A stretch of 64,000 bases of DNA from Nitrospirota bacterium. GTDB lineage: Bacteria; Nitrospirota; Thermodesulfovibrionia; UBA6902; DSMQ01. The stretch spans positions 3,760 through 67,759 of the forward strand of contig JACRGX010000002.1 of assembly GCA_016212185.1 (NCBI GenBank), in the 5' to 3' direction. Under the pieces are notes generated by a model, which ran no database searches, was not told where the DNA came from, and saw nothing but the letters and a program-made list of their open reading frames with translations. Below, piece after piece: positions 23,405 through 53,170 of the stretch (position 1 is the stretch's first letter; every line of letters begins with the position of its first letter). Position numbers and translations under genes: made by a program.

Positions 23405-23477
23405 TTAGCTCCTCCTTTTTATTGGTTTCAATTTAAAAAATTACATTTATGTAAATGTTTTTTGCCGTTTGTGTCCT

Positions 23478-23603
23478 TGCGGCTTGTCCGCAATCCTTTT
23501 ATTTTTTCGTTGTCATTCTGGCTTGTCCAGAATCCTTTCCAAGAAAGATTCCGAATCCCGAAGCATCGGGAGAATGACATTTCCGGCAAGCGAAAATGAC
23601 AAC
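23478..23603. repeat. Composite repeat between hppA and qmoC: direct repeat ggcttgtccRSaatcc x2 plus a GGAATGAC-family hairpin (cccgaagcatcggg)
   Basis: Read directly; shares motifs with 15757, 47545 and 53171. Confidence 0.45.
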
Positions 23604-23625
23604 TATAATAAGAACTACTCATTTG

Positions 23626-24744: not shown

Positions 24745-24772
24745 TTAATACCTCCCAATAATAGGGTTCTAT

Positions 24773-24872
24773 GATTCAAGGATTCGTGGGTTCAAGTGAT
24801 TAAAATTCATAACACATTACGAATTACGGTTTTAAAATCCTTGACTCCTTGACTCCTTGACCGCTTGAATCC
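24773..24872. repeat. GGATTCAAGG-family long imperfect palindrome between qmoB and qmoC
   Basis: Left arm gattcaaggattcgtgggttcaagtgat, right arm aatccttgactccttgactccttgaccgcttgaatcc. The loop contains the cacattacgaattacggtttt heptamer motif. Confidence 0.6.
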
Positions 24873-24878
24873 TGTTTT

Positions 24879-27104: not shown

Positions 27105-27106
27105 CT

Positions 27107-28366: not shown

Positions 28367-28554
28367 TTCTTACCTCCTTAAGGCAGTAATAATTCAAACA
28401 AAATAAATCCAACCACAGAAAACACCGAGAACATATTCATTGTAAATTTATTCCCGAATTGTCGGGACAAACTTAGCATTTTAAATTTGCATTTTGAAAT
28501 GATAATTGATAATTTTGCAATAAAAAATAACCTGTGCCCTCTGTGGTTAAATTA

Positions 28555-28591
28555 TTTTTTAAAAAAATATGGGGAGGGCTGTGCCCTCCCC
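28555..28591 (-). terminator. Intrinsic terminator downstream of aprA (ggggagggc-aca-gccctcccc + T-run on the minus strand)
   Basis: 9-bp GC stem at 28571..28591 followed by a T-run on the minus strand. Confidence 0.6.
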
Positions 28592-28603
28592 ATATAACAT
28601 CAC

Positions 28604-30607
28604 CTACTTAACCATCTGAACGTATGGTACTTTCTTTAACTCCCATTTGTTAGTCTCTGCATCATACCTGGAGTTTGTAAAGCATTTCCAGTTCGCATCA
28701 TCAATCTTGTTGTGGTCGCCTCTGTAGTAGTAACCCGGATATCTGGATTCTTCCCTGAAGAGGATATGCCTTGCATGCGCCTCTACCGACAGAATTCTGT
28801 GGTAGTTTTCAAAGCACCTTAAGAGCTCATGGAGGTCTTTTGCTGCCATTTTGCATGCATCCTCTTTAAGCATCTCAAGCAGTCTTAAACCTTCCTCAAG
28901 CATGGTCTTTGAGGTCATGTACCATGTGGCTACACCGCCAAAGTATTCATCAGAGATCTTCATCAATCTTGCCTGGAGAGCTTTTGGTCCGATATAGTTA
29001 GGATTGACGCCTGGTTCGGTTGTATAGGTTTTGTGTTTTTCATAAATCTCAAACGGCATATACAGTTCAGCTGCGATTTCGTCAAGAGACAGTTTTGGTG
29101 ATGGCTTATAGCTTGCATTATCAAGGATGTAAGCTATTGCAGCCTTTGCCGCCTGCCTGCCTTCTGCATGAGAACCGGATGAGAATTTGTGGCCTGAGGC
29201 GCCTACAACGTCGCCTGCCATAAAGAGACCGGGTACGGTAGACATCCTGTTATATCCCCAACTGTAATGTGCCGGTGTGCCGGGAAGATCGCCGGGTCCG
29301 CTTACCCAGAATCCCGCGCAGCCTGCGTGTGAACCTAAGAGATACGGCTCTGTCGGCATGATTTCGGAAACAGACTTATCCGGCTCAATATTCTTTGCCG
29401 CCCAGAGAGACGCCTGTCCGATAGCCATGTCAAGGAAGTCTTCCCATGCCTCTGCCTCAAGGTGTTTCATTTTCTTGGCGCCTTCTTTGTCGCCAAGTTT
29501 CTCTTTAAAGGCTGTGCCTAATGCTGCCATAGCCGCAGGGGTCTGCATAAGGATCGGGCCTCTGCCGTCCTTCATAGCCCGCATCATGAGATGGTTTCTT
29601 ATAGCCGTGCCGAGACCTTTTGCATAGTCTCCATATCTGGCAACTGCGTCATCAAAATATTCCTTGTCCGCACAGTAATCGTTGCCATAGCTGTCTGTAG
29701 CCTTTGCTTTGAAGAACAAGAACCAGGCGCCGACAGGACCATATCCGTCTTTAAATCTTGCAGGTACGAATCTGTTCTCCATTAATGTCAGCTCAGCGCC
29801 GGCCTGCATTCCGAAGGCGTATCCTGAACCGCAGCTAAATACCGGGTACCAGGTCCTTCCCATACCTTCACCAACCGACCTCGGCCTGAAGCAGTTGACT
29901 GCTCCGGCAGTCGCGCAGATCATTGCCTTTGCCTTGAAGGAGTAAATCTTATTTTCTCTCGTGCTGAATCCTATAGCTGCTGCCACGTTCTTGCCGTTTG
30001 TGTCCTTTACGGCCTTCACGATGAAAACCCTTTCAAAATGGTTCTGCGCCATACCGGTTTTTTCACGGTTGGTCTGAAGCGCCTTCTTTGCAGCTTCTGC
30101 AACAACAACTTTATAGGATTCGCCATTGATCATTATCTGCCATTTACCTGACCTGACCGGCATGCCGCCGTCCTTCAGTGATGCCTTTCCTGCATCCTTT
30201 GCCTGAAATCCGTCAAGCGAAAAACCGTCATCGCCTTTTTTCCAGATAGGAAGCCCCCACTCCTCAAAGAGCTGGACGCTGTCATCAACGTGCCTTCCGA
30301 GGTCAAACACCAGGTCTTCTCTGATAATGCCCATAAGGTCGTTTCTGACATATCTTACATAGTCTTCAACTTTGTTCTCACCGATATAGGTATTGATGGC
30401 TGACAGACCCATTGCAACCGCGCCGCTTCTGTCTGTTGCGGCTTTGTCAACGAGGACCACCTTCAGTCCCTTTTCATTGGCCCAGCGGCATGCCTCATAA
30501 GCTGCGCCGCAGCCGGCCATACCGCCGCCCATGATCAGGAGATCACATTCAACTTCTGTTACTTCGGGTCTCTTACAATATGAAAATGTACAGGTTTCTT
30601 TTTCCAT
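28604..30607 (-). CDS. aprA: Adenylylsulfate (APS) reductase alpha subunit
   Basis: 667 aa, FAD motif LIMGGGMAGCGAAYEA; sits between sat/aprB and qmoA. Confidence 0.9.
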   Translation of the reverse strand: MEKETCTFSYCKRPEVTEVECDLLIMGGGMAGCGAAYEACRWANEKGLKVVLVDKAATDRSGAVAMGLSAINTYIGENKVEDYVRYVRNDLMGIIREDLVFDLGRHVDDSVQLFEEWGLPIWKKGDDGFSLDGFQAKDAGKASLKDGGMPVRSGKWQIMINGESYKVVVAEAAKKALQTNREKTGMAQNHFERVFIVKAVKDTNGKNVAAAIGFSTRENKIYSFKAKAMICATAGAVNCFRPRSVGEGMGRTWYPVFSCGSGYAFGMQAGAELTLMENRFVPARFKDGYGPVGAWFLFFKAKATDSYGNDYCADKEYFDDAVARYGDYAKGLGTAIRNHLMMRAMKDGRGPILMQTPAAMAALGTAFKEKLGDKEGAKKMKHLEAEAWEDFLDMAIGQASLWAAKNIEPDKSVSEIMPTEPYLLGSHAGCAGFWVSGPGDLPGTPAHYSWGYNRMSTVPGLFMAGDVVGASGHKFSSGSHAEGRQAAKAAIAYILDNASYKPSPKLSLDEIAAELYMPFEIYEKHKTYTTEPGVNPNYIGPKALQARLMKISDEYFGGVATWYMTSKTMLEEGLRLLEMLKEDACKMAAKDLHELLRCFENYHRILSVEAHARHILFREESRYPGYYYRGDHNKIDDANWKCFTNSRYDAETNKWELKKVPYVQMVK

Positions 30608-30627
30608 TATTTTTTCACCTCCTTAAA

Positions 30628-31047
30628 TTATTCTTTCCTTGCCGGGCTATTAAAAAACCCGGGTTGTTTAATAGTTGAGAAGTCAGGCGCCGGTTTTCCT
30701 TTATATGGATCAACGGAACCTTCTACGGTAGTTCTGATGGGGAATTTGAATCTCTTCAGAATTCCATTCCTAAATTTAATTGTCCACATAATGGAGTCAG
30801 TGCCTCTCAAAGGGATGGTACTGGAGCCGAGGGGAACGAAGTCTGAATACCCCCTTACTTCTATAGCCTGCTGAGGGCATATTTTTACACAGTTAAAGCA
30901 CTCCCAGCACTGCTCGGGTTCCTGATTGTAAGCCTTCATCTTTTCTCTGTCCAGGGCCATCAAATCATGAGGACAAATATACTGACATGCAGTCTTATCC
31001 TGCGCCTTGCAGCCGTCACATTTTTCTGTGATTACAAAACTTGGCAT
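30628..31047 (-). CDS. aprB: APS reductase beta subunit (2x[4Fe-4S])
   Basis: MPSFVITEKCDGCKAQDKTACQYICPHDLMALD. Confidence 0.85.
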   Translation of the reverse strand: MPSFVITEKCDGCKAQDKTACQYICPHDLMALDREKMKAYNQEPEQCWECFNCVKICPQQAIEVRGYSDFVPLGSSTIPLRGTDSIMWTIKFRNGILKRFKFPIRTTVEGSVDPYKGKPAPDFSTIKQPGFFNSPARKE

Positions 31048-31170
31048 AATCTAACCTCCTAACTTAAGTTAATTGAGTTTGAAAACTTTTTTATGGTTTT
31101 AAAAACCATCTAATACTGCTTCTAACTTCACCCCCTCTCGTTAATTAATAATTGAAAATTGTTAATTGCC

Positions 31171-32388
31171 TTATTTTATTCCTTCTGAATATTTGTGGGT
31201 CTTTATCTCAACCTTCTCTGTCAGACCTGAATAGTATTCCCTTAATATCTCCAGAACCTCAGGACGGCTGAAGTGGTCGGGAACGGTCTCTCCCTCTGAA
31301 AGCATCTTCCTTAACTTTGTGCCGCTAAGAAGCATCCTGTCTTCCTTGCCGTGGCAGCAGGTCCTCATTGATGACATGCCGTCGCACTTTGTACAGTAGA
31401 ACGTCCAGTCTATTTTCAACGGCTTTGTCTCAAGGGCATCCTTTGGTATCTCATCAAATATCTTCTGTGCATCAAACGGACCGTAGTATTCACCGACGCC
31501 TGCATGGTCGCGCCCGATAATCTGATGGCTGCAGCCGTAGTTCTGCCTGAACAATGCATGCAGTAATGCCTCGCGGGGTCCTGCATATCTCATGTCAAGC
31601 GGATAGCCGGCCTGAATGCTTGTATCCTTTACAAAGTAAAGCTCTGTCAATTTGTCTATCGCCTTTACCCTGACTTCTGCCGGTATATCGCCGGATTTTA
31701 ATTTTCCCAAAAGCTGATGAATCAGTACGCCGTCGCATGTCTCAATTGCAATCTTTGCAAGATATTCGTGAGACCTGTGCATGGGGTTCCTTAACTGAAG
31801 GCATGCAACCGTGCTCCAGCCTTTTGCCTCAAATATTTTTCTGGTCTCAGCAGGCCTCATATAAACTCCCGCAAACTGCTTCGGGAACATTCCCTCGCTT
31901 AACACCTTAACCGTGCCGCTTAAGTTTACTTCTTCCTGCCCCATTACCTTTGCCACTCCGGGGTGTTCCATATCAGTCGTCTTAAAGACCTGCTTGCATT
32001 CATGCGCCTTGTCTATTTTGTATTTATCCTGAACCTTCATTGTGGCCATAAGTTCGCCGGATTCTTCATCTATAAGGGCTATTTCCTGTCCATTCTTTAT
32101 GCTGTTAGCCTGTCCCTCCGATGTGGAAAGCGTCACAGGAATAGGCCAGAAAGTTCCGTCTGCCATTTTATAATTATCACAAACACCCTTCCAGTCGTCG
32201 TGTCCCATAAAGCCCGTAAGCGGAGTGAATCCTCCGATGCCCATCATTATGAGGTCGCCTGTCTCCCTTGAAGCGGTCCTTACCTCAAGAAGAGTCTTCG
32301 CCTTTTTCTTTTCCTCTGCAAGCTCCTGGCCCTCAAGCAAAAGGGGCTTTAATTTTTTTGCTTTGCCGTGCGGATTTACAAGTGACAT
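31171..32388 (-). CDS. sat: Sulfate adenylyltransferase (ATP sulfurylase)
   Basis: [12 protein letters not shown] (QxRN...HRxHE) motif. Confidence 0.9.
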
Positions 32389-32423
32389 TTCTCCTCCTTA
32401 ATATATTTTGGATTTTGTTTATA

Positions 32424-32476
32424 CGTTCAAGGTTCTGTTGTCAACCCATTTAAACAACATTGAACTGTTTGAACTT
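32424..32476. promoter_or_regulatory. GTTCAA ... aaccattt ... TTGAAC repeat module upstream of sat
   Basis: cgttcaagg...caacccatttaaacaac...attgaactgtttgaac. Same architecture as 34494..34576 and 52575..52690. Confidence 0.4.
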
Positions 32477-32485
32477 ATTTTTAAG

Positions 32486-33130
32486 TTATTTTCCCAGCAA
32501 ACTGCATACCTTATTGAAAATATCATCAATGCCGCCGGTGCCCATTACCGATTTCAGTATTCCGCCTTTTTTGTAATAATCAATCAGCGGCGCAGTCTGG
32601 GCCTCGTACACATCAAGCCTTCTTTTTATCGTTTCTTCCTTGTCATCATCCCTCTGGAAAAGCTCTCCCCCGCATTTGTCGCACACTGTGTTCTTTTTGG
32701 ACGGGGAAAAATATACGTTATACATCTGCTGACAGCCCCTGCAGGTCCTTCTGCCGGTAAGTCTTTTCATGAGGTCGTCTTTTGGGACCTCAACGCTTAA
32801 GGCTGAATCAAGAGGCATGTTCAGTTTCTTCAGCATTGCATCAAGCGTCTCGGCCTGCGCGGTATTGCGCGGGAATCCGTCAAGTATAAAACCCTTCTTG
32901 CAGTCCGGCTGTTTCAGCCGGTCCTCAATCAGTCCTATGACGACCTTATCCGGCACGAGTTCCCCCTTGTCCATATAAGACTTTGCCTCTTTGCCGAGCG
33001 GGGTTCCGTCTGCTACTGCCTTTCTGAGGATATCACCGGTAGATATCTGTGGGATGCCGTATTTCTCAATAAGTTTTTTTGCCTGAGTCCCTTTGCCGGC
33101 ACCCGGCGCACCTAACAATACAAGTCTCAT
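32486..33130 (-). CDS. adk: Adenylate kinase (zinc-finger lid type)
   Basis: LGAPGAGKGTQA P-loop; CRGC...CDKCG lid. Confidence 0.9.
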   Translation of the reverse strand: MRLVLLGAPGAGKGTQAKKLIEKYGIPQISTGDILRKAVADGTPLGKEAKSYMDKGELVPDKVVIGLIEDRLKQPDCKKGFILDGFPRNTAQAETLDAMLKKLNMPLDSALSVEVPKDDLMKRLTGRRTCRGCQQMYNVYFSPSKKNTVCDKCGGELFQRDDDKEETIKRRLDVYEAQTAPLIDYYKKGGILKSVMGTGGIDDIFNKVCSLLGK

Positions 33131-33205
33131 TCACACCTCCGGAAAAAATATTTTTATATAATCAAAAAAATAGAACGCTGTCTTTTTCACAACAAAACTA
33201 TTGAA

Positions 33206-33234
33206 TTGCAAGGCAGATTGTTGTGTGGTATTAT
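33206..33234 (+). promoter_or_regulatory. Putative sigma70 promoter: TTGCAA, 17-nt spacer, TG-n-TATTAT
   Basis: -35 at 33206..33211 and -10 at 33229..33234, upstream of the DRTGG gene. Confidence 0.4.
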
Positions 33235-33342
33235 CTTTCCAATACCAAAAAAAGTAAGTATAATATGATGAAGTGACGGTATTCAGTCAACATAAAAATT
33301 TAAATTAAAATATAATCTTTGCTTATAAAAACAGGAAACTAC

Positions 33343-33693
33343 TTGAAATTAAAAGAAATTGCAAGACTGCTTGATGCAGAGGTAATATCAGATTCCGCAG
33401 ATCTGGATGCTGATATCATGCTGGTATACAGCAGCGACTTAATGAGCGACGTGCTTTTTTTTGCGCCCCCTGACTGCATACTAATTACCGGACTTACACA
33501 TCCGCATGTGATACGCACTGCCGAGATTACCCGCATAAACGCCATTGTCTTTGTTCAAAACAAAAAACCTGACAGCGAGACTGTTGAACTTGCTAAAAAA
33601 AAGAATATCCATTTGCTTGTCACACCGCTGTCCAAATTCGCCGCATGCGGAAGGCTGTACATGAACGGCATACGCGATTGTTCTGAAAAATAA
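33343..33693 (+). CDS. DRTGG-domain protein
   Basis: LKEIARLLDAEVISDS...CILITGLTHPHVIRTAE...LLVTPLSKFAACGRL. TTG start at 33343 with an AGGAAA RBS is preferred over the TTG at 33319. Confidence 0.55.
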   Translation: MKLKEIARLLDAEVISDSADLDADIMLVYSSDLMSDVLFFAPPDCILITGLTHPHVIRTAEITRINAIVFVQNKKPDSETVELAKKKNIHLLVTPLSKFAACGRLYMNGIRDCSEK

Positions 33694-33696
33694 CAT

Positions 33697-34128
33697 ATGG
33701 CTATTTCTCAATCAATAGAAGGAAGTTTTCAGCTTATCGGAGGCAATTTTGACAATGCCGGCGAGGCGTCAATTAAATTGAAGCAGGAGCTTGCGCGTCT
33801 TGGATTGAATGAGGAAATCATACGAAGGGTTGCAATCGTGACCTTTGAGGCTGAGATAAATGTAATAATTTACGCCGCGGCCGGCTGGCTTCATTATGCC
33901 ATCACACTGGAGCAGATAAAAATTAAAGTGGAAGATATGGGGCCCGGCATTGAAAATATTGAACTGGCGATGCAGGAAGGCTATTCCACCGCGCCGGACT
34001 GGGTAAGGGAGCTGGGCTGGGGCGCAGGCATGGGGCTTCCGAATATGAAAAAAAACTCGGATGAATTTAAGATTGACTCGGTTGTCGGCGAAGGGACCAC
34101 GGTTGAGATGGTGATAAATATTAAATAA
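33697..34128 (+). CDS. Histidine-kinase-like ATPase (RsbW / anti-sigma-factor Ser kinase-like)
   Basis: HATPase_c Bergerat-fold motifs (EDMGPGIEN, G-rich lid). Confidence 0.6.
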   Translation: MAISQSIEGSFQLIGGNFDNAGEASIKLKQELARLGLNEEIIRRVAIVTFEAEINVIIYAAAGWLHYAITLEQIKIKVEDMGPGIENIELAMQEGYSTAPDWVRELGWGAGMGLPNMKKNSDEFKIDSVVGEGTTVEMVINIK

Positions 34129-34147
34129 AGGAATCAGGAGGTGCGCT

Positions 34148-34492
34148 GTGAAACTTAACGATATTGTCAATAAACTGCCTCTGAAAGTTAACTCATACAG
34201 CGACGGGCTTCAGAAAGATGTAAGCGGCGGATATTCAAGCGACCTGCTTTCAGATGTACTGGCAAACAGCAGGGAAGGTAATGTCTGGATTACACTTCAG
34301 ACTAACTTAAATATAGTTGCCGTCGCAAGCGTAAAAAACCTTGCAGGCATAATCATTGTCAGCAGTAAAAAGCCTCCGGAGGAGACACTGAAAAAAGCAG
34401 AGGAGGAAAAAATTACAATTATGACAACCTCCATGCCGGCATTTGAAACAGCAGGGAGAATTTATCAGCTTCTACAAGGAAAAAACGTTTAA
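34148..34492 (+). CDS. DRTGG-domain protein (second copy)
   Basis: GTG start with an AGGAGGTG RBS; SDLLSDVLANS...IVSSKKPPEETLKKAEE pattern. Confidence 0.55.
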   Translation: MKLNDIVNKLPLKVNSYSDGLQKDVSGGYSSDLLSDVLANSREGNVWITLQTNLNIVAVASVKNLAGIIIVSSKKPPEETLKKAEEEKITIMTTSMPAFETAGRIYQLLQGKNV

Positions 34493-34493
34493 A

Positions 34494-34576
34494 TTGTTCA
34501 AACGTTAAAATCGTTCAATTTATCTGCAATGTTCAACCATATTAAACCATTTAAACCATTTGAACATTTTGAACAG
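34494..34576. promoter_or_regulatory. GTTCAA x3 ... aaccattt x2 ... TTGAAC x2 repeat module upstream of the PHP gene
   Basis: tgttcaaacg..cgttcaattt..tgttcaacc..taaaccatttaaaccatttgaacattttgaaca. Confidence 0.4.
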
Positions 34577-34632
34577 ATTAAACTAAACGAATATTTTTAA
34601 AACTTGCAAACAGTTCACTGGAATAAAAAATC

Positions 34633-35382
34633 ATGGAAACGCTCCGGACATTCAAGGCTGACCTGCACATCCATACATGCCTGTCTCCGTGCGCTGACAT
34701 CGGCATAACGCCTTCAACAATTGTGAAACGGGCAATTGAAAAAGGCATAGACATCATTGCCGTCACGGACCACAATTCCGCTGAAAATACTGCGGCGGCA
34801 AAAAAAGCCGCAGAAGGCACAGGGCTTACGGTCCTTGCCGGAATGGAAATCGCCTCTTCGGAAGAGGCTCACATTTTGGCGCTCTTTGATGACATTGAAG
34901 GCATCATGAGACTTCAGGATATAGTTTATATGAATCTGATGCCCGGAAAAAATGACGAAAAGAGATTCGGCTATCAAATAGTCGCGGATGAAAATGACGT
35001 AGTGCTGGGTTTCAACAAACGCCTGCTTATAGGAGCCGCATTACTGACCGCCCATTCAATAGTAAAAATAATTCATCTGTTCGGAGGGCTTGCAATAGCA
35101 TCGCATATTGACAGGAGTTTTTTCAGCGTCATATCCCAGTTCGGCTTCATCCCCGAGGATATAAAATTTGATGCGCTGGAGATATCTTTCAGGCTGTCAC
35201 GGGAAGAGGCCGAGAGAAAATTCAGGGAATATAACCATATCCCGTGGATATCAGCGTCTGATTCGCATAGGATAGACGACATCGGCGCAAGGACCTCAAC
35301 ATTTTTCATAAAAGAACCTACAATAGCCGAGCTATCTTCCGCCTTTAAAAATATTGACGGAAGAAAAGTGGAGTGGGGGTAG
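34633..35382 (+). CDS. PHP-domain metal-dependent phosphoesterase
   Basis: DLHIHTCLSPCADI...IIAVTDHNS. Confidence 0.75.
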   Translation: METLRTFKADLHIHTCLSPCADIGITPSTIVKRAIEKGIDIIAVTDHNSAENTAAAKKAAEGTGLTVLAGMEIASSEEAHILALFDDIEGIMRLQDIVYMNLMPGKNDEKRFGYQIVADENDVVLGFNKRLLIGAALLTAHSIVKIIHLFGGLAIASHIDRSFFSVISQFGFIPEDIKFDALEISFRLSREEAERKFREYNHIPWISASDSHRIDDIGARTSTFFIKEPTIAELSSAFKNIDGRKVEWG

Positions 35383-35386
35383 AGAC

Positions 35387-35518
35387 TTGGGGTCAGGTCT
35401 TCATTCTTCACTTAATCCCCCTTCCAAAACAAATAAATATGACGGTTCTATTTTTTTATTTCTTTCCATCTTTTAAAACCCCTTTTCCATCCTCTCCCTA
35501 CCTCTCTGACAGAAAAAT
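35387..35518. repeat. About 135-nt conserved intergenic element, copy A (second copy at 46827..46962)
   Basis: ttggggtcaggtcttcattcttcacttaatccccc...ccaaaacaaataaatat...ctgacagaaaaattatttatata; about 85% identical to copy B. Confidence 0.6.
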
Positions 35519-35622
35519 TATTTATATAGTTAGGCGCTATAAAATCTTTATAATACTGCCCGTTAATTTCTTTTGTAGCCATGAAAATCATATTCTGCTA
35601 TAATCCGTTTTAAAAACCGAGT

Positions 35623-36156
35623 ATGGAAGACCTTTCATTACACATTCTTGACGTCATAGAAAATTCAATAAACGCTGACGCGACAAAAATCCGGCTGACG
35701 ATAACTGAAGACACCGGCAAAAATCTCTTCAGCGTGGAAATAGCCGATAACGGCAGGGGAATGGATGAGAAAACAATAAAAATGGCTTATGACCCCTTTT
35801 TCACGACAAAAGCAAAGCGCACAGGGCTTGGCATCCCGTTTTTAGCAGATGCGGCAAGAGAAGCCGGCGGGGATATTTCCATCAAATCGGAAAGGGGCCA
35901 GGGCACAACCATCACCGCAAATTTCCGGCATGACCACATTGACAGAAAACCACTTGGAGAAATTGAAAAAACCATAATGGTTTTAATCGCCGCCAGTCCT
36001 CACATTGACTTCACATTTGAATTCAAAAGAAATGACAAAACCTATATAATTGATACGGCAGAAATTAAGGAAAAAATGGGGGATGTTCCTGTGAATGACC
36101 CTGAGATAATAAATTTTATTAAAGACGGTATAAGGCAGTGGCTAAAAGATACATAG
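35623..36156 (+). CDS. Stand-alone HATPase_c-domain protein
   Basis: IENSINADATKIRLTI...VEIADNGRGMD...GLGIPFLADAAREAGGDISIKSERGQGTTI. Confidence 0.55.
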   Translation: MEDLSLHILDVIENSINADATKIRLTITEDTGKNLFSVEIADNGRGMDEKTIKMAYDPFFTTKAKRTGLGIPFLADAAREAGGDISIKSERGQGTTITANFRHDHIDRKPLGEIEKTIMVLIAASPHIDFTFEFKRNDKTYIIDTAEIKEKMGDVPVNDPEIINFIKDGIRQWLKDT

Positions 36157-36221
36157 GATATGATAATATATAACCTCAATAAGTCCCGTCATTCCGGTTT
36201 ATAAAAAGTTAGAAAGGGCTG

Positions 36222-36992
36222 ATGATGGAAAAAGGTAAAATCCTTGTACTTGATGATGACCCTATTGTAAGCCTGAGCTGTAAAAGGATATTAGGCGCAG
36301 AAGGCTACAATATAACTACAGTTGAAAGAGGAGAAGCCGCACTCAATAAAATATCCAAAGAGGATTTTGATCTGGTAATCGCTGACGTCAGGCTCCCTGA
36401 CATCAGCGGCCTGACCGTGCTTAAAGAGTCCCGCATAATCAAGCCTGAGACCGATGTCGTAATAATCACAGGTTACCCTACTCTTGAAGATGCAAAAGAA
36501 TCCATAACGTTAGGTGCCTCGGAATACATTGAAAAACCTTTTACGCCTGATTTCATGATAAATATAGCCAAGAAAGTCTTTGACACCAAAGGCTGGATAC
36601 TGAGGCAGGCATTTATTAATGACTTCAGGAATTACACAGTTCCCTCAAGGGACACGGAAAATCCCGTAATATTTTATAAAGAAGGCACATGGGCAAGACC
36701 GATTGATAATAACTTATGGGAGATAGGCTGTGACCTGAGATACTGGATTCTGACGGGCAATCTCATGTATGTTGATTTTATAAAAGACTTGGAAAAATTC
36801 ACGGCAGGCGAGCCCTTTGCAAGGATTTACACAGGCACAGGCCAAAGCAGCGAGCTCATGGCGCCGATGAACGGAGAACTTAGAGAGATAAATACAAAGG
36901 TCAATGATGTCATGGCAGTCTTATTGCAGGAACACCTTTCAGAGGGCTGGCTCATATGGCTGGCAAGGGTGTTTCCGTTGAGCACAGAGTAG
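36222..36992 (+). CDS. Response-regulator receiver domain fused to a GcvH-like (non-lipoylatable) domain
   Basis: ILVLDDDPIV...DLVIADVRLPDISG...KPF (REC). The C-terminus (WARPIDNNLWEIGCD...NGELREINTKVND...EGWLIWL) resembles glycine-cleavage H protein but has no lipoyl-lysine. Confidence 0.55.
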   Translation: MMEKGKILVLDDDPIVSLSCKRILGAEGYNITTVERGEAALNKISKEDFDLVIADVRLPDISGLTVLKESRIIKPETDVVIITGYPTLEDAKESITLGASEYIEKPFTPDFMINIAKKVFDTKGWILRQAFINDFRNYTVPSRDTENPVIFYKEGTWARPIDNNLWEIGCDLRYWILTGNLMYVDFIKDLEKFTAGEPFARIYTGTGQSSELMAPMNGELREINTKVNDVMAVLLQEHLSEGWLIWLARVFPLSTE

Positions 36993-37114
36993 TGCGTTCA
37001 TAGCGCCTGCCTGCCGGTAGGCAGGTTCATAGCGTTTATTGCGTAAAGCGTAACAGGGAAATACACATTACTCATTACGGATTACGCATAACGGTTTTTT
37101 ATAAGGGAGAACTT

Positions 37115-38032
37115 ATGTCCGGCAGCGTGCTGGTAGTTGATGATGAGCTTGTTGTTATAAAAAGCTGTGAAAGAATCTTAAATGCTGAAGGCTACAATGT
37201 AGACAGCGCCTCCGGCGGCGCAGAGGCATTGCGCAAAATAGAAAAAACTAACTACGACCTCGTGCTCACCGACCTAAAAATGCCCGGAATGGACGGCATA
37301 ACACTGATCAAACTGATAAAAAGGGCCAAACCCGCACAGGGCATTGTAGTCATTACAGGCTATCCGACGCAGGAGACAATCAAAGAAGCTCTTGAGATGG
37401 GCATCATTGATTATGTGCCAAAGCCGTTTACTCCGGCAGTGCTTACAGATGTTACGCACAGGGCCTTTCAATGGATAAAGGGGACAGTTGCTGGAGAAAA
37501 ACCAAAAGAGGAATTCCCTCCTGCCATGATTGCCGAGCTTGACAGGGTCCTCAGGGAATATAAAAACAAGCCGGGCAACGCAATACCCGCGCTTCAGCGC
37601 GCACAGGAAATCGTCGGATACCTGCCGCCCTTAATACAAAAACGTATTGCAAAAGGTTTAAATATATCGCCGGCTGAGATTCACAGCATTGTTTCGTTTT
37701 ACTCATTCTTTACAATGAAGCCGCGGGGCGACCACACGGTAAGGGTATGTCTCGGGACTGCATGTTATGTTAAAGGAATTGAGACAATAATAGCCAAACT
37801 TAAAGATACGCTAATGATAGATGTCGGCGGAATAACGGCAGATAAGAAATTCTCTCTTGAGACCGTCAGATGCCTTGGCGCCTGCGGCCTCGCGCCTGTC
37901 ATGGTCATAGACCATGATACATACGGCTCATTGACTCAGAAAAAGGCGGTAGATGCCCTGAGCAACTATGCCTCACTGCAGACGGCGGCGCTGTCCGAAG
38001 AGAAAGAATTTGCAGACAGCAAAGGAGATTAA
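37115..38032 (+). CDS. Receiver domain fused to a NuoE / HndA-type [2Fe-2S] thioredoxin-like subunit
   Basis: VLVVDDELVV...DLVLTDLKMPGMDG...KPF (REC), then RVCLGTACYVKG...RCLGACGLAPVM (NuoE-type four-Cys motif). Confidence 0.75.
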   Translation: MSGSVLVVDDELVVIKSCERILNAEGYNVDSASGGAEALRKIEKTNYDLVLTDLKMPGMDGITLIKLIKRAKPAQGIVVITGYPTQETIKEALEMGIIDYVPKPFTPAVLTDVTHRAFQWIKGTVAGEKPKEEFPPAMIAELDRVLREYKNKPGNAIPALQRAQEIVGYLPPLIQKRIAKGLNISPAEIHSIVSFYSFFTMKPRGDHTVRVCLGTACYVKGIETIIAKLKDTLMIDVGGITADKKFSLETVRCLGACGLAPVMVIDHDTYGSLTQKKAVDALSNYASLQTAALSEEKEFADSKGD

Positions 38033-38034
38033 AA

Positions 38035-38418
38035 ATGACGAGACTGACGATAGATGACCTTCTAAAGATCAAAGAAAAACATCAGGCGGAATTTACCCTG
38101 AGAGAAGGCGGTTACAGGGCAAAAGTTACAGTCCACATGGGCACCTGCGGAATTGCGGCAGGCGCAAGGGCTGTCATGACTGCATTAATGGATGAAATTT
38201 CAAATGCCAGTGTAAAGGATGTCATAGTCACAACCTCGGGCTGCGCAGGGCTTTGCGCCCGTGAGCCCATGGCGACTGTTGAAATAATCAATCAGCCGCC
38301 AGTAAAATACTGCGACTTAAATGAAGATAAAATTAAACAGATATTCAAAGAACACATTATAGCAGGAACACCTGTTGAAAAATATGTGCTGGTAGCCGGT
38401 TGTGAAACAACATACTAA
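38035..38418 (+). CDS. Small thioredoxin-like [2Fe-2S] ferredoxin (HndB-like)
   Basis: MGTCGIAAGA...TSGCAGLCAREP. Confidence 0.6.
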   Translation: MTRLTIDDLLKIKEKHQAEFTLREGGYRAKVTVHMGTCGIAAGARAVMTALMDEISNASVKDVIVTTSGCAGLCAREPMATVEIINQPPVKYCDLNEDKIKQIFKEHIIAGTPVEKYVLVAGCETTY

Positions 38419-38423
38419 AAAAA

Positions 38424-38520
38424 GGATTCAAGGGGTCAAGCGGTCAAGGATTCAAGTGATAGAAAACTACATTTTAAAAAATTGTCACTTGAACCCTGGA
38501 ATCCTGGAATCCTTGAACCC
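38424..38520. repeat. GGATTCAAGG-family palindrome between the ferredoxin and nuoF-like genes
   Basis: ggattcaaggggtcaagcggtcaaggattcaagtgat ... cacttgaaccctggaatcctggaatccttgaaccc. Confidence 0.6.
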
Positions 38521-38533
38521 TATTTAGGAGTCT

Positions 38534-40360
38534 ATGGAAAATTTTCGCGCAAATATAATGCTATGTGCAGGGACGGGCTGCGTTGCCAGCGGAACCATGA
38601 AGGTTAAGTTCGCCCTTGAGAAAGAGCTGAAGAAAACGGGGCTTGAAAACGAAATAAAAGTAGTCCTCACCGGCTGTAACGGCTACTGCGCGCAAGGTCC
38701 TGTAATGTCGGTTTATCCTGATGACATTTTTTATCAGGCAGTTAGCGTAGATGAAATACCCAAACTGGTTGAAGAACACTTCCTTAAAGGCAGGCCGTAT
38801 GAGAAGCTGATGTTCAAGGAGCCTGAAAAAAAGTCTGCTGTCCCTTTAATGAAGGACATCCCTTTCTTTAAACATCAGGTTCTAAGGGTATTAAGGAACA
38901 AAGGGCTTATTGACCCTGAAAAAATTGAAGAGTACATTGCAAGAGACGGTTATCAGGCCGCGGCTAAGGTGCTGACACAGATGACCCCTGAGGACGTAAT
39001 AAATGTGATAAAAGATTCAGGGATAAGAGGCCGGGGCGGAGCTGGATTTCCAACAGGCATGAAATGGGAATTTTGTTCAAAGGTCAGGTCTGATGTAAAG
39101 TTCATGCTCTGCAACGGTGATGAAGGCGACCCGGGCGCATTTATGGACAGGTCTGTAATGGAGGCTGACCCGCATGCTGTTATTGAAGGCATGATTATCG
39201 GCGCAAGGGCCATCGGCTCTCATAACGGCTACATCTACGTAAGAGCTGAATACCCTCTGGCTGTGAAAAGGCTTCAGCTGGCGATAGACCAATGTTATGA
39301 GGCAGGACTCCTCGGTAAAAACATCCTTGACAGCGGTTTTGATTTTGACCTTGAGATTTATCAGGGAGCCGGGGCCTTTGTCTGCGGAGAGGAAACCGCT
39401 TTGATGCGGTCCATTGAGGGCAAGCGCGGCATGCCGAGACCACGGCCGCCCTTCCCTGCCCACAAGGGATTATGGGACAAGCCGTCAGTTTTAAACAATG
39501 TTGAAACCCTTGCGCAGATTTCCCTGATAATTATGAACGGAGCAGACTGGTATAAAAGCCTCGGCACTGAAAAAAGCACCGGGACAAAGGTTTTCGCCCT
39601 TACAGGCGCAGTTAACAATATCGGGCTTATTGAAGTGCCTATGGGCACGCCGTTGAAGACCATTATTTTTGACATAGGCGGGGGTATAAAAAAGGGAAGA
39701 AAATTCAAAGCAGTCCAGATGGGAGGACCGTCAGGAGGCTGTATCCCTGAAAGTCTGATTGACATCCCGGTCACATATGAAGATGTCGTAAAGACAGGAG
39801 CCATCATGGGCTCAGGCGGCATGGTGGTAATGGACGACAACAACTGCATGGTCAGCATTGCAAAGTTCTTCCTGGAATTCACTGCGGACGAATCCTGTGG
39901 AAAGTGCGTGCCCTGCAGGGTGGGTACCAGGATACTGCTTGATATGCTCATTGACATTACAGAAGGCAGGGGAAAAGAAAGCGATATAGAAACACTTGAG
40001 GATCTCTCGCTGGATATTATCGCTGCATCGCTTTGCGGCCTCGGACAAACAGCGCCGAATCCCATCCTCACAACAATACGGTATTTTAAAGATGAATATG
40101 AATCGCATATAAAAGATAAATGGTGCAAGGCAGGTGTGTGCCGCAGTCTCTGCACATTTATGATTGATGAAAAAACCTGCACCGGATGCGGCGCATGCAT
40201 GAGGGCCTGTCCGGCTAAGGCAATTACAGGGGAAAAGAAAAAACCTCACAATATTATGCAGGAGGTCTGCGTCCACTGCAGGAACTGTTATGAAACCTGT
40301 AAGTTTAATTCTATCCGAATACTGCCGGCAGCAGCGAGAGAAACAGTGAAGAAAGAGTAA
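38534..40360 (+). CDS. NuoF / HndC-like NAD(P)H-binding flavoprotein with an N-terminal [2Fe-2S] domain and C-terminal 2x[4Fe-4S]
   Basis: GRGGAGFPTGMKWEF, ESCGKCVPCR, CTGCGACMRACP...CVHCRNCYETC. Confidence 0.85.
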   Translation: MENFRANIMLCAGTGCVASGTMKVKFALEKELKKTGLENEIKVVLTGCNGYCAQGPVMSVYPDDIFYQAVSVDEIPKLVEEHFLKGRPYEKLMFKEPEKKSAVPLMKDIPFFKHQVLRVLRNKGLIDPEKIEEYIARDGYQAAAKVLTQMTPEDVINVIKDSGIRGRGGAGFPTGMKWEFCSKVRSDVKFMLCNGDEGDPGAFMDRSVMEADPHAVIEGMIIGARAIGSHNGYIYVRAEYPLAVKRLQLAIDQCYEAGLLGKNILDSGFDFDLEIYQGAGAFVCGEETALMRSIEGKRGMPRPRPPFPAHKGLWDKPSVLNNVETLAQISLIIMNGADWYKSLGTEKSTGTKVFALTGAVNNIGLIEVPMGTPLKTIIFDIGGGIKKGRKFKAVQMGGPSGGCIPESLIDIPVTYEDVVKTGAIMGSGGMVVMDDNNCMVSIAKFFLEFTADESCGKCVPCRVGTRILLDMLIDITEGRGKESDIETLEDLSLDIIAASLCGLGQTAPNPILTTIRYFKDEYESHIKDKWCKAGVCRSLCTFMIDEKTCTGCGACMRACPAKAITGEKKKPHNIMQEVCVHCRNCYETCKFNSIRILPAAARETVKKE

Positions 40361-40362
40361 AA

Positions 40363-40510
40363 TCGGGTTAGAGGATTCAAGGATTCGAGGGTTCAAGTAA
40401 ACTATGGAATTCGTTATAAGTTATAAGTTATAAGTTATAAGTTATAGGATAACGAATAACGTAGCGCTAAAATTCACTTGAATCCTTGACCGCTTGACCC
40501 CTTGAATCCT
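40363..40510. repeat. GGATTCAAGG-family palindrome with an internal (GTTATAA)5 heptamer tract; about 92% identical, in reverse orientation, to 56043..56185
   Basis: gggttagaggattcaaggattcgagggttcaagt ... (gttataa)x4gttatagg ... acttgaatccttgaccgcttgaccccttgaatcc. Confidence 0.7.
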
Positions 40511-40525
40511 TTGAAAGGTTTTATT

Positions 40526-43075
40526 ATGGTAACTTTAACAATTAACGGCAAACAAATTGAAGCTGTAGAAGGCACGACCATTCTTGAGGCTGCGCTGAAA
40601 AACGGCATCAGGATTCCAAACCTCTGCTATGACAGAAGGCTCAAGCCTTATGGCGCATGCAGGTTGTGCGTTGTTGAAGTGGAAGGTCAGCCGAGGCTTT
40701 TTGCTTCATGCTCAAGCCCGGTCACTGCAGGCATGGCGGTAAAAACTGATACGCCGAAACTGAGGAAGGCGCGCCAGACAGTGCTTGAGCTCATGCTGGT
40801 GCACCATCCTCTGGACTGCCCGCTATGCGACAAGGCCGGCGAGTGCGACCTTCAGGACTTTGCATACGACTACGGTAAACCTGAAGCGCGCTTTATCAGA
40901 CACCGGAAAGAAGCGCCTCCTGATGTAAGGGGTCCACTGGTAGAGCTGACTGCAAACAGATGCATTTTATGCGGCAAATGCGTGCGGCTGTGCGATGAGC
41001 ATCAGGGCCGGGGAGCATTAGGGTTTATCGGCAGGGGATTTTCTACAGTGGTCCAGCCTGCTTTCGGCGAAATACTTGAATGCGATTACTGCGGGCAGTG
41101 CATAGATGCATGTCCTACCGGCGCGCTTCTCAGCAAACCGTATAAATTCAAGGCAAGGCCCTGGTTCCTTGATGAAAAAGATACCATATGCCCGTTCTGC
41201 GGCTGCGGCTGCACCCTGACTCTCGGAATTCGGGATGGAGAAATATTAAGGTCACGGGGAGTAGAAGGCAGGGGACAAAGCAAAGGCAATCTCTGCGGCA
41301 GGGGCAGATTCGGCTTTGATTACATTTACAGCAAAAACCGCCTGAAGACCCCGCTGATTAGAATAAAGGATAAAAAAGAGGGTTCAAGGATTCAAGGATT
41401 CAAGGATTCAAGTGAAAAACTCGACCCCTCGACCCCTCGACCCCTCGACCCCTTTCCAAGTTTTAGAGAGGCTTCCTGGACTGAGGCGTTGAATTACATC
41501 AGCGAAAACCTCCGGTCTATTTCAGAACAACACGGGCCGTCTTCCATAGGCGCCATAGGCTCGCACAGATGCGCTAATGAAGATAATCATATGCTGCAAA
41601 AATTCATGAAGCACATTATCGGCTCAAACAATATTGACTCATCGGCAGCCTTTGGCTATGCAGTTGTTGAAAAGGCATGGGAAACGGCCTTCGGTCAAAA
41701 ATGCCACAGCATTAACCTTAAATCCCCGCTTGATAAAGAAGCCATTCTGATAGTTGAATCCGACCTGACTGTTACGCATCCGGTATTCGGGCTGAATATC
41801 TTACAGGCCAAAAGGGAAGGTTCAAAGCTTATTGTTGCCGACAGTAGGGAAACAAAACTTACAAGACACAGCTCGCAGAAGCTCAGGATAAAACCCGGGA
41901 CAGGCATAGCCCTGCTTAACGGAATAATGAAAATTATAATGGACAAAGAGCTCTTTGATAAAGAAAAGGTATCGGGTATTGCAGGTTTCTCAGCGCTTCA
42001 GACATTATTAGATGATTACACCACTGAGAAGGTCTGCAGGATTACCGGATTAACAGAAGCAGAGCTGACAGCAGCCTCTGAAACATATGCCCGCGCCAAA
42101 AGCAGAATGATTTCCCTCACAATAAGCGCTTCGGAGAACACCAAAGGCATGGATACCGTTCTTGCCGCTGCCAATCTTATCTTACTGCTTGGCGACAGCC
42201 ACAGCTCGCTTCAAATACCTGCGGAATATTCAAACAGCTTCGGCGCATATCACCTTTTGAACGGTTTAAACAATTCAAGCACAGGAAAAGATATTTTTGA
42301 AATGCTTTATAACCCGGACTCTATCAGGGCATTATATATCATGGGAGAAGACCCTGCGCTCAACTTCCCGGACACCTCAAGTATAATAAATAAGTTGAAG
42401 TCTTTGGATTTTCTGATTGTTCAGGACATAGCGCTTACTGAAACCGCAAAATTAGCGCATGTAGTCCTGCCTGCGTCAAGCTGGGCTGAAAAAGACGGAA
42501 CATTCACCAATGCCGAAGGGCTTAACCAGCGGCTGCAAAAAGTAATTGACACGGCAGAACAGCCTCTTCCTGACTGGAGGATATTGAAGGACCTTGCTTT
42601 ATGCATGGGGAAAGACACAGGCATAAGAAACATTGAAGATATTACCAAAGAAATAACTTCATCCTTCAACCCTCAACCTTCAACCCTCAACCCTCAACCT
42701 TGTTTTAGTCCGGTTAGTTACGCCCCTGCCGAAAAATCAGACAGTTATCCCATATCCCTGATACTCAGGGATATTCTTCAGCACTCAGGGAGCATGTCTG
42801 CACGGTCAAAATCACTGGACCTGGTGGCATCCGAGGCAATTCTTGAGATAAATGAAGAAGATGCCAAAAAACTCGGCATCACAGACAACAGTCATGTAAA
42901 AGTAAGTTCAAGCCGTACCAGTGTTTATCTTAAGGCAATGGTTTCCGACGAAATCCCGGAAGGCGCAGTGTTTGTCTCTGCACATTTTCCCCATGCAAAA
43001 ATAAACACCCTGACCTCTCCCTTCTTAAACGGCATGCCCTCTATCACCATGGTAAATATAGAAGCCGTGAAGTAA
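40526..43075 (+). CDS. NuoG / FdhA-like subunit (2Fe-2S, 4Fe-4S, MopB and molybdopterin-dinucleotide-binding domains) lacking the Cys/Sec Mo ligand
   Basis: The N-terminal FeS domains and MopB CPFCGCGCTL cluster are intact. Where FdhA has [18 protein letters not shown]...GSGAMTNS this protein reads NNIDSSAAFGYAVVEKAWETAFG. Start reassigned to the ATG at 40526 (GAAAGG RBS), outside the upstream hairpin. Confidence 0.75.
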   Translation: MVTLTINGKQIEAVEGTTILEAALKNGIRIPNLCYDRRLKPYGACRLCVVEVEGQPRLFASCSSPVTAGMAVKTDTPKLRKARQTVLELMLVHHPLDCPLCDKAGECDLQDFAYDYGKPEARFIRHRKEAPPDVRGPLVELTANRCILCGKCVRLCDEHQGRGALGFIGRGFSTVVQPAFGEILECDYCGQCIDACPTGALLSKPYKFKARPWFLDEKDTICPFCGCGCTLTLGIRDGEILRSRGVEGRGQSKGNLCGRGRFGFDYIYSKNRLKTPLIRIKDKKEGSRIQGFKDSSEKLDPSTPRPLDPFPSFREASWTEALNYISENLRSISEQHGPSSIGAIGSHRCANEDNHMLQKFMKHIIGSNNIDSSAAFGYAVVEKAWETAFGQKCHSINLKSPLDKEAILIVESDLTVTHPVFGLNILQAKREGSKLIVADSRETKLTRHSSQKLRIKPGTGIALLNGIMKIIMDKELFDKEKVSGIAGFSALQTLLDDYTTEKVCRITGLTEAELTAASETYARAKSRMISLTISASENTKGMDTVLAAANLILLLGDSHSSLQIPAEYSNSFGAYHLLNGLNNSSTGKDIFEMLYNPDSIRALYIMGEDPALNFPDTSSIINKLKSLDFLIVQDIALTETAKLAHVVLPASSWAEKDGTFTNAEGLNQRLQKVIDTAEQPLPDWRILKDLALCMGKDTGIRNIEDITKEITSSFNPQPSTLNPQPCFSPVSYAPAEKSDSYPISLILRDILQHSGSMSARSKSLDLVASEAILEINEEDAKKLGITDNSHVKVSSSRTSVYLKAMVSDEIPEGAVFVSAHFPHAKINTLTSPFLNGMPSITMVNIEAVK
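41380..41453 (+). repeat. In-frame tandem nonamer insert (GGATTCAAG)3-(CTCGACCCC)4 within the NuoG/FdhA-like CDS
   Basis: Encodes GSRIQGFKDSSEKLDPSTPRPLDP. A near-identical copy lies in the paralog at 55112..55184. Confidence 0.8.
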
Positions 43076-43159
43076 AAGTTAAAAACACTTGACACTACCG
43101 GTAAAATTTTATATAGTTTCAAAACGGCAAATAACCATATCTTATCGGGGGGGGATAAA

Positions 43160-43903
43160 ATGAAAAAAATAATCCTGTCTTGTTTTTGTTGTTCAGTACT
43201 CTTTATTCTGTCAGCAATCACTTCATCATCATCTGCCAGCGAGATAGATAAGCTGACCGGATGGAAATTTGCACAGCTTGCCAAGGGAGGCGTTTTATAC
43301 GACAACTGGCCCGCAGAACTCAGGGTAAAGATTGATAAGACACACCCCGCCTACCCTGCCGAAGGAAAAATTAAAGGCTTGGATACATGGCGCTGTAAGG
43401 AATGTCACGGCTGGGACTATAAAGGCAAGGCAGGCATTTATTCAAGCGGCGAGCATTATACAGGCATCGGAGGCATCAGGGCTTATGCCAATCAGGATCC
43501 GGTGGAAATAGTAAAAATACTTAAGAATAAAACCCATGCTCTTGGAAATATGATAGGAGAAAGTGATCTGGAAGCCCTGTCACTGTTTGTCTCCTTCGGG
43601 CAGATAGACATGGACCTCTACCTTGACCGTACAACAAAAAAGGTTATCGGCGAGCCTGCAAACGGCGCAAGGATATATCTGACCACATGCATAAAATGCC
43701 ACGGCGATGACGGCAAGGCAATAAATCACGGTACTATGCAAAACCCCATATATGTTGGAACGTCTGCAAATAAAAACCCGTGGGAAACCATTCACAAAAT
43801 CCGGTGGGGACATCCCGGAACCCAGATGATCTCCCTGCTCTTCTTAGGGCTGAAGGACCAGCTTGACGTCCTCTCCTTCTGCAAAACACTGCCGGAAGAA
43901 TAA
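43160..43903 (+). CDS. Secreted dihaem cytochrome c
   Basis: Signal peptide; CKECHG and CIKCHG (two CxxCH motifs). Confidence 0.8.
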   Translation: MKKIILSCFCCSVLFILSAITSSSSASEIDKLTGWKFAQLAKGGVLYDNWPAELRVKIDKTHPAYPAEGKIKGLDTWRCKECHGWDYKGKAGIYSSGEHYTGIGGIRAYANQDPVEIVKILKNKTHALGNMIGESDLEALSLFVSFGQIDMDLYLDRTTKKVIGEPANGARIYLTTCIKCHGDDGKAINHGTMQNPIYVGTSANKNPWETIHKIRWGHPGTQMISLLFLGLKDQLDVLSFCKTLPEE

Positions 43904-53146: not shown

Positions 53147-53170
53147 AATACCCCCTCTGCATAATATGTT

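Follow-up and report, generated by a model that had tools for sequence, protein, structure and literature searches.

Receiver domains fused to a NuoE-type [2Fe-2S] subunit and to a non-lipoylated H-protein fold in and beside a predicted Bfu-type NAD(H) module in a Nitrospirota bacterium

Why would a structural electron-transfer subunit carry the receiver of a two-component system? The question is raised by two neighboring genes in a 64-kb stretch of Nitrospirota DNA (contig JACRGX010000002.1), which we call the window and in whose numbering all coordinates are given. A sequence-only reading of this stretch had proposed that 37115-38032 encodes a CheY-like receiver (REC) in front of a complete NuoE/HndA fold, and that the preceding gene joins another REC to a glycine-cleavage H-like domain without the lipoyl-lysine. 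It had also proposed that neither protein has a DNA-binding domain. The follow-up analysis upholds these points, and we use it to weigh what the receivers might do. The two genes are as follows:

36222-36992, + strand: REC-GcvH-like response regulator (“REC-GcvH”), with the REC at about 36240-36563 and a non-lipoylated H-protein fold at about 36678-36962
37115-38032, + strand: REC-NuoE, with the REC at about 37127-37450 and a NuoE/HydC helical bundle plus thioredoxin-like [2Fe-2S] domain at about 37541-37969

REC-NuoE is an open reading frame of 305 aa on the + strand, in which Pfam finds Response_reg at residues 5-112 (104 bits) and 2Fe-2S_thioredx at residues 143-285 (160 bits), both far over their cut-offs. 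The phospho-acceptor aspartate is D53 in DLVLTDLKMPGMDG (codon 37271-37273), and the other receiver-site residues (D9/D10, T81, and K103) are all there. The NuoE domain has its four cluster cysteines (C212, C217, C253, and C257), and its top PDB matches are the HydC subunits of bifurcating hydrogenases (E ~1e-36). In the AlphaFold model, strands and helices alternate through the REC, with pLDDT of 89-96 up to residue 80 and of 70-83 for the final REC strands and helix. These are followed by a low-confidence linker of ~14 residues, helices across residues 136-199, and a thioredoxin-like domain. The product of 37115-38032 is therefore a NuoE/HydC-type [2Fe-2S] subunit with a canonical two-component receiver at its N-terminus, and it is the sole NuoE gene of its operon.

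The preceding gene encodes 256 aa on the + strand, and both its relatives and the public gene call begin at the second Met (36225). Response_reg is matched at residues 7-114 (89.5 bits), with D12/D13, the acceptor D55 (36384-36386), T83, and K105 forming the receiver site, and GCV_H at residues 153-247 (27.8-29.7 bits against a cut-off of 22.2), which places all three of the originally suggested Pfam domains over cut-off. The AlphaFold model is poor overall (pLDDT 55.8, with C-terminal block means of 52-84) and only its C-terminal domain is usable; in Foldseek, this domain matches solved H-proteins at TM 0.6-0.65 over ~105 columns. In an alignment with E. coli GcvH, the lipoyl-lysine of the latter falls on G207, and the position after it varies in the family (Q 48, K 20, H 4, and others). 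As such, 36222-36992 encodes a second receiver protein, one whose output domain is a non-lipoylated H-protein fold: it shares the fold of GcvH but, unlike GcvH, has no conserved lipoyl-lysine and is fused to a receiver. A classical gcv operon has gcvP and gcvT as neighbors, and neither was found among the scanned cluster genes. A likeness of the H-protein-like domain to the RnfC_N barrel-sandwich, which we also considered, found no Pfam support even at E = 10. No DNA-binding family was matched in either protein by Pfam or NCBIfam. Both REC domains are NtrC-like and they share 43% identity, which suggests a common origin.

Could the fusions be assembly or frameshift artefacts that join separate genes? 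We consider the chance of this negligible, since each architecture accounts for over 120 protein clusters at 90% identity, and NCBI, JGI, ENA, and Logan supply many independent contigs that encode it. The best 120 homologues of REC-NuoE and of REC-GcvH have the same architecture as the respective query, at identities of 64-94% and 74-96%. A survey of REC-NuoE fusions, which the sequence-only reading had suggested, returned many: at least 17 distinct clusters among the top 150 in an exhaustive search, with representatives taken at 50% identity. They extend over several phyla, including Acidobacteriota (L011), Planctomycetota (L051), and Thermodesulfovibrio (L001); the contig scan with REC-NuoE was dominated by the generic receiver motif DLKMPGMD and yielded true fusions only in these three loci, so that taxonomic breadth is thinly sampled. 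Both architectures are thus abundant in databases, under generic names. A protein search with the GcvH-like domain alone gave 23 matches, mostly short or fragmentary, and no new architectures. REC-less NuoE representatives (P0262, P0263, and P0318) lie on contigs too short to reveal their gene context. In one 578-aa protein (P0241), REC and NuoE-fold stretches each occur twice, in what looks like a tandem REC-NuoE-REC-NuoE; the duplication may be genuine, or it may have arisen as an artefact of gene calling or assembly.

The two fusions also belong together. We recovered 80 metagenomic loci using the H-protein-like domain alone as query, and in all 54 with enough downstream sequence REC-GcvH is followed by REC-NuoE, HndB, NuoF, and NuoG. 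The two receiver genes are directly adjacent in 48 of these loci and separated by an insert in 6. As such, REC-GcvH and REC-NuoE always travel together. The five receiver-site residues (Asp-Asp, acceptor Asp, Thr, and Lys) show no variation among 78 REC-GcvH and 56 REC-NuoE sequences, close relatives that share just 58-96% overall identity, and the four NuoE cysteines are invariant among close REC-NuoE relatives. Conservation in divergent REC-NuoE clades is at least 90% for D53 and K103, and complete for the four cysteines.

What enzyme do these receivers sit on? Three further core genes follow REC-NuoE:

38035-38418, + strand: HndB-like small [2Fe-2S] thioredoxin-like subunit (Pfam 2Fe-2S_thioredx at 19.8 bits, under cut-off; PDB matches)
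38534-40360, + strand: NuoF/HydB (BfuB)-type flavin mononucleotide subunit, with an extra N-terminal [2Fe-2S] and a C-terminal 2x[4Fe-4S] domain (Pfam)
40502-43075, + strand: NuoG/FdhA-like large subunit (BfuA), with Fe-S domains kept and Mo/W active-site residues gone (Pfam, NCBIfam)

The NuoF product matches HydB of structurally characterised bifurcating hydrogenases over its full length (residues 3-594, ~820 bits) and complex I NuoF over the core only (~390 bits). The PDB matches of the HndB-like subunit are the N-terminal domains of BfuB-type subunits. Because NuoF is closest to HydB, NuoE to HydC, and HndB to the BfuB N-terminal domain, we assign the module to the Bfu/Hnd type, that is, to the BfuABC/HydABC/Hnd family of flavin-based electron-bifurcating enzymes, which includes a predicted “Nuo-Bfu” (Schut et al. 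2022, PMC9304861). The window cluster (NuoE-type, HndB-like, NuoF with extra Fe-S domains, and NuoG/FdhA-like) matches this family in its subunits and their cofactor domains. In contrast to it, the window's large subunit has no catalytic site, its genes are detached from the membrane-arm genes, and its NuoE bears a REC.

The large subunit deserves a closer look. It aligns over its full length with R. capsulatus FdsA (~400 bits), the Mo-ligand Cys-His motif ARVCH of FdsA being replaced by AAFGY and the catalytic Arg motif PLRGQNN by IPAEYSN (the latter read by eye against the consensus, in a region outside the HMMER alignment). Both changes are conserved in ~30 relatives. We therefore rejected the possibility that the complex is a formate dehydrogenase, since the Mo-ligand Cys/Sec-His is replaced by Gly-Tyr throughout those relatives; FdsABG and Fdh-Bfu resemble the window complex in the overall alignment of the large subunit and differ from it in this ligand and in the Arg motif. 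The window operon encodes no further catalytic subunit. Altogether, the genes are predicted to encode a four-subunit flavin/iron-sulfur NAD(H) module, made up of REC-NuoE, the HndB-like subunit, a Bfu-type NuoF, and a NuoG-like subunit without a catalytic Mo site. Separately, the large subunit has Pro/Ser-rich low-complexity insertions at residues ~290-320 and 725-745 (SRIQGFKDSSEKLDPSTPRPLDPFPS; SSFNPQPSTLNPQPCFSP), of which residues 290-320 lie outside the alignment to solved FdsA.

A REC-less paralogous cluster in the same window serves as an internal control:

53270-58467, - strand: REC-less paralogous NuoE/NuoF/FdhA cluster
57955-58467, - strand: REC-less NuoE
56187-57968, - strand: Bfu-type NuoF of the paralogous cluster
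53270-56059, - strand: FdhA with an in-frame TGA (54908-54910) in CARY-U-HSATVAG
52691-53221, - strand: cyclic nucleoside monophosphate (cNMP)-binding protein, after the paralogous cluster
50780-52543, - strand: formate-tetrahydrofolate ligase, after the paralogous cluster

Its FdhA is called by open reading frame finders as two genes (54908-56059 and 53270-54895), and the in-frame TGA in CARY-U-HSATVAG leads us to predict a selenocysteine formate dehydrogenase.

The nearest REC-less counterpart of the receiver-bearing module is found elsewhere. In the L169/L170 operon (2165-16516), the gene order is nuoABCD, DRTGG, PHP, HATPase_c, NuoE without REC, HndB, Bfu-type NuoF, NuoG, and nuoHIJKL. This counterpart is thus flanked by nuoD and nuoH within a complex I operon, together with the same kinds of accessory genes that stand upstream of the receivers in the window:

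33319-33693, + strand: DRTGG-domain protein 1, accessory regulatory (Pfam DRTGG, 26.8 bits; adjoins the core genes in relatives too)
33697-34128, + strand: SpoIIAB-like GHKL ATPase/putative Ser-Thr protein kinase (Pfam HATPase_c_2, 35 bits; kept in relatives)
34148-34492, + strand: DRTGG-domain protein 2 (Pfam DRTGG, 26.7 bits; 53% identity to the L169 nuo-operon DRTGG)
34633-35382, + strand: PHP-domain phosphoesterase, candidate phosphatase (Pfam PHP, 46.8 bits, plus PHP_C; 47% identity to the L169 nuo-operon PHP)
35623-36156, + strand: stand-alone histidine-kinase catalytic (CA) domain (Pfam HATPase_c, 61.6 bits, residues 7-102)

With these, ten closely packed + strand genes span 33319-43075 (open reading frame list, Pfam, and NCBIfam), and a scan found no terminator-like site on the + strand within 33000-43100. 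Window and L169 counterparts are 61% (NuoF), 55% (HndB), and 46% (NuoE domain) identical, and the L169 NuoG has the same Gly-Tyr in place of the Mo-site Cys-His. The stand-alone HATPase_c protein is 43% identical to its L169 counterpart, and DRTGG protein 1 is 41% identical to the 123-aa protein that opens the L169 nuo operon. That operon is preceded by this DRTGG1-like protein (for which no Pfam match is on record) and by a CBS + HATPase_c_2 protein. The L169/L170 arrangement corresponds to the Nuo-Bfu predicted in PMC9304861. The window cluster, which does not lie within a nuo operon, looks like a detached Nuo-Bfu-type input module that has retained the old accessory genes, and a divergent nuo operon (nuoABCD) adjoins the cluster in 12-13 Nitrospirota relatives.

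The accessory genes have a history of their own. The five-gene set lies upstream or downstream of the core in different relatives, is absent from the flanks of some, and co-occurs with REC-less NuoE too (L169). This variable position and occurrence suggest that the set predates the receivers and does not depend on them. The stand-alone HATPase_c protein has no HisKA/DHp domain in Pfam, and no Pfam family matched its last 75 residues; its top NCBIfam and PDB matches are the CA domains of AtoS/ZraS kinases, which are the partners of NtrC-family regulators. Against the NCBIfam family for anti-sigma F factor SpoIIAB, the product of 33697-34128 scores 57.8 bits, under the cut-off. In a distant locus (L084, 18553-20664), DRTGG and HATPase_c_2 genes stand directly upstream of a gene for a 440-aa HydS-like protein (Fe_hyd_lg_C plus an “FeS” domain), and the same locus has REC-NuoE, a REC-REC protein, a Cache kinase, and an NtrC-type regulator; from this locus, the accessory genes may be linked to putative H2 sensing.

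Where would the phosphate come from? A full-length HAMP-HisKA-HATPase kinase is encoded in at least 17 related loci, and after it comes a single-domain REC protein, which Pfam verifies in L148, L141, and L132. An NtrC-type sigma-54 activator is encoded in 11 related loci. The kinase, REC, and NtrC genes immediately precede either REC-GcvH or the accessory genes, and in L148 just 0-3 nt separate the kinase gene, the CheY-like gene, and REC-GcvH from one another. Distant REC-NuoE clades (L011 and L084) have a Cache-HAMP-HisKA kinase and an NtrC-type regulator alongside. In addition, a well-matching sigma-54 -24/-12 element is present in ~20 loci, mostly 26-70 nt upstream of REC-GcvH. Consequently, regulation in the relatives would also be transcriptional, through the NtrC-type activator and a sigma-54 promoter. 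In the window, one sigma-54-type -24/-12 match with one mismatch (TGGCAGTCTTATTGCA) occurs at 36913-36928 on the + strand, within the REC-GcvH 3' end and ~190 nt before REC-NuoE; sigma-54 motif counts over the whole window are at chance level.

We consider it probable that phosphorylation acts post-translationally on the NADH module, with an exact effect that we infer. The idea of a phosphorylation switch is strengthened by the invariance of the five receiver-site residues in close relatives, by the presence, within the gene string of many related loci, of genes for a HAMP-HisKA-HATPase kinase and a CheY-like protein, and by REC-NuoE being the only NuoE gene in its operon. Specifically, a HAMP-HisKA sensor kinase would phosphorylate D53 of REC-NuoE and D55 of REC-GcvH and, in relatives, the CheY-like and NtrC-type proteins as well; for the window cluster, the kinase would be encoded elsewhere in the genome. 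Phosphorylation would remodel the alpha4-beta5-alpha5 face of the receiver, and the change would pass through the ~14-residue linker to the NuoE helical bundle. In solved homologues, this bundle packs on NuoF. Given the short linker and this packing, the change may alter how the [2Fe-2S] subunit is seated on the flavoprotein, or the dimerisation of the module. The outcome would be a gating of NADH/ferredoxin electron flow, or of the docking of the module to a partner, which would most likely be a complex I-type membrane arm. REC-GcvH would serve as a co-regulator, either by competing for phosphate or as an adaptor whose H-protein-like domain binds the module. The DRTGG, HATPase_c_2, PHP, and HATPase_c genes would form an older, separate regulatory layer common to the REC-less relatives.

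Several observations weigh against such a switch, or against its connection to complex I. The inter-domain geometry of REC-NuoE is unreliable in the AlphaFold model (pTM 0.52). No HisKA kinase, CheY-like protein, or NtrC-type gene was found anywhere in the 64-kb window. Receivers are degenerate in some distant REC-NuoE clades (P0246, P0298/P0304, and P0381), and phosphorylation therefore appears dispensable in some lineages. Overall, the large subunit is slightly more similar to the window's Sec-FdhA paralogue (39% identity) than to NuoG (34%). Lastly, in the two relatives in which the neighboring nuo operon was checked (L148 and L162), that operon holds its own canonical nuoE-F-G. As such, a role of the module as the complex I N-module is tentative, and the proposal that the cluster supplies a missing N-module to an adjacent 11-subunit nuo operon was rejected for these two loci.

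The degenerate clades speak for a purely structural role, in which the receivers are phosphorylation-independent dimerisation or scaffold modules that add an interface without a switch. These clades have lost the acidic pocket or the acceptor Asp and yet retain the fusion, and the lack of a kinase gene in the window fits the same explanation. However, the full conservation of the five receiver-site residues in 56/56 and 78/78 sequences, at overall identities of just 58-96%, speaks against this role, as does the cognate-type kinase gene that directly adjoins the cluster in many relatives. We consider a structural role quite improbable.

The neighboring nuo operons raise a different alternative, namely that the module is a soluble NAD(P)H/ferredoxin oxidoreductase working with NfnAB-like or other partners, and that the receivers tune the cytoplasmic pyridine-nucleotide/ferredoxin balance. 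Genes for NfnA-like (SudB-type) and NfnB-like (GltD-type) proteins are inserted between REC-GcvH and REC-NuoE in six complete relatives (L092, L095, L098, L110, L156, and L162, in the last at 10430-12897) and in truncated contigs, which hints at a functional link to NADPH/ferredoxin transhydrogenation. Among solved structures, NuoF, NuoE, and HndB are nearest to soluble bifurcating enzymes, and the checked nuo operons possess their own NuoEFG. On the other hand, the closest REC-less counterpart is embedded between nuoD and nuoH with its accessory genes included, the divergent nuo operon stands beside the cluster in 12-13 relatives, and no NfnAB gene was found in the 64-kb window. We regard the soluble enzyme as possible, if somewhat unlikely. 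The detached Nuo-Bfu reading is likewise tentative, given the nuoEFG genes of the checked neighbors, the closeness of the large subunit to Sec-FdhA, and the Nfn-like inserts.

Alternatively, the signal could flow in reverse, with REC-NuoE, and perhaps REC-GcvH, informing the two-component system about the redox state of the enzyme or its [2Fe-2S] cluster. Instead of switching the enzyme, the receiver would then tune the NtrC-type transcriptional output, either as a sink for phosphate or by inhibiting the kinase. In the relatives, one kinase stands beside up to four receivers (CheY-like, NtrC-type, REC-GcvH, and REC-NuoE), a layout typical of branched or sink pathways, and both a sigma-54 promoter and an NtrC-type activator exist there. 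There is also a precedent in FixT of Caulobacter, an Fe-S-binding single-domain receiver that inhibits its kinase (Stein et al. 2020, PMC7078487). Like REC-NuoE, FixT is a receiver protein tied to an Fe-S cluster, a link from redox to two-component signalling without DNA binding; the FixT cluster, however, is bound by the receiver itself, whereas that of REC-NuoE lies in a separate enzyme-subunit domain. Moreover, REC-NuoE must be part of the enzyme, since it is the only NuoE of its operon and keeps every structural BfuC feature, and neither an NtrC-type gene nor a kinase is found nearby in the window or in several relatives (L001, L135, L151, and L158). We consider reverse flow unlikely as the account of these receivers; forward and reverse signalling are not mutually exclusive.

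Returning to a forward phosphorylation switch, we can sketch its most far-reaching form, in which a dedicated two-component system would act as a respiration clutch. Engagement of a Bfu-type (NADH + ferredoxin) input module with a complex I-type membrane arm would depend on the phospho-receivers, one fused to NuoE and the other an H-protein-fold adaptor, and the module would be an alternative to the canonical NuoEFG that can be switched on or off. This is a speculative proposal, and we would not expect it to be correct. If it were, NuoE/HydC would also be a target of the long-unexplained DRTGG, PHP, and kinase-like genes beside Bfu-type clusters.

How much of this has been seen before? Among the papers that our literature searches turned up, none describes a fusion of a receiver with NuoE/HydC or with an H-protein fold. 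The nearest precedent for REC-NuoE is Rv3143 (MSMEG_2064), an orphan receiver protein of mycobacteria that is encoded in the nuo operon and has no DNA-binding domain (Plocinska et al. 2022, PMC9274095). Rv3143 binds NuoD of the canonical complex I, and post-translational modulation was proposed, although its phosphorylation could not be demonstrated (PMC9274095). Relatives of the window likewise encode a single-domain REC, with only a kinase gene between it and the divergent nuoA. The systems differ in that Rv3143 is a free single domain, whereas the window receiver is covalently fused to the NuoE of a Bfu-type module, and in that the window type has a second receiver with an H-protein fold and, in relatives, a cognate-type kinase alongside. 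The description of Nuo-Bfu has no mention of receiver domains, kinases, or PHP (PMC9304861), and the regulatory-looking genes inside the nuo operon appear undiscussed in the Nuo-Bfu literature that we consulted. Kinase-like genes beside putative sensory hydrogenases have been noted and left unexplained (PMC8163306); our searches gave no direct account of DRTGG, PHP, or kinase-like genes near hydrogenases. The fusions combine known kinds, namely response regulators with non-DNA outputs and Bfu/Nuo-Bfu modules, and form no new category.

The combination matters because little is known about the control, after synthesis, of flavin-based bifurcating enzymes and complex I-type NADH modules, for which the literature search found just the Rv3143 study. 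A receiver on NuoE, with invariant site residues and a kinase alongside in relatives, makes NuoE/HydC a likely candidate for the control point of this enzyme class, and the fusion makes the question of control experimentally tractable. It also offers a route to the function of the DRTGG, PHP, and kinase-like genes that recur by Bfu-type and putative sensory-hydrogenase clusters. A further question that it touches is whether sulfate-reducing Nitrospirota, which are often said to have no NADH input module for their Nuo complexes (PMC5165239), can couple NADH or ferredoxin to them.

The host itself falls in this group. Divergent from the receiver cluster lies a dissimilatory sulfate-reduction block:

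21326-33130, - strand: the block as a whole
21326-23404, - strand: H+-pyrophosphatase
23626-28366, - strand: qmoC/B/A-like genes
28604-30607, - strand: aprA
30628-31047, - strand: aprB
31171-32388, - strand: sat
32486-33130, - strand: adenylate kinase (adk)

The sat, aprBA, and qmoABC-like neighbors, together with the closest homologues of REC-NuoE and REC-GcvH, which come from metagenome-assembled genomes of Nitrospirae/Thermodesulfovibrionia, indicate a sulfate-reducing Nitrospirota. The adjacency of this block to the receiver cluster is not kept in relatives. On the other side, directly downstream of the cluster, 43160-43903 (+ strand) encodes a likely dihaem cytochrome c, with a Pfam Cytochrom_C match, two CxxCH motifs, and, by eye, a signal-peptide-like N-terminus. 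The best sigma-70-like match of the region (43089-43117, 11/12) precedes this gene, which is probably a separate transcription unit.

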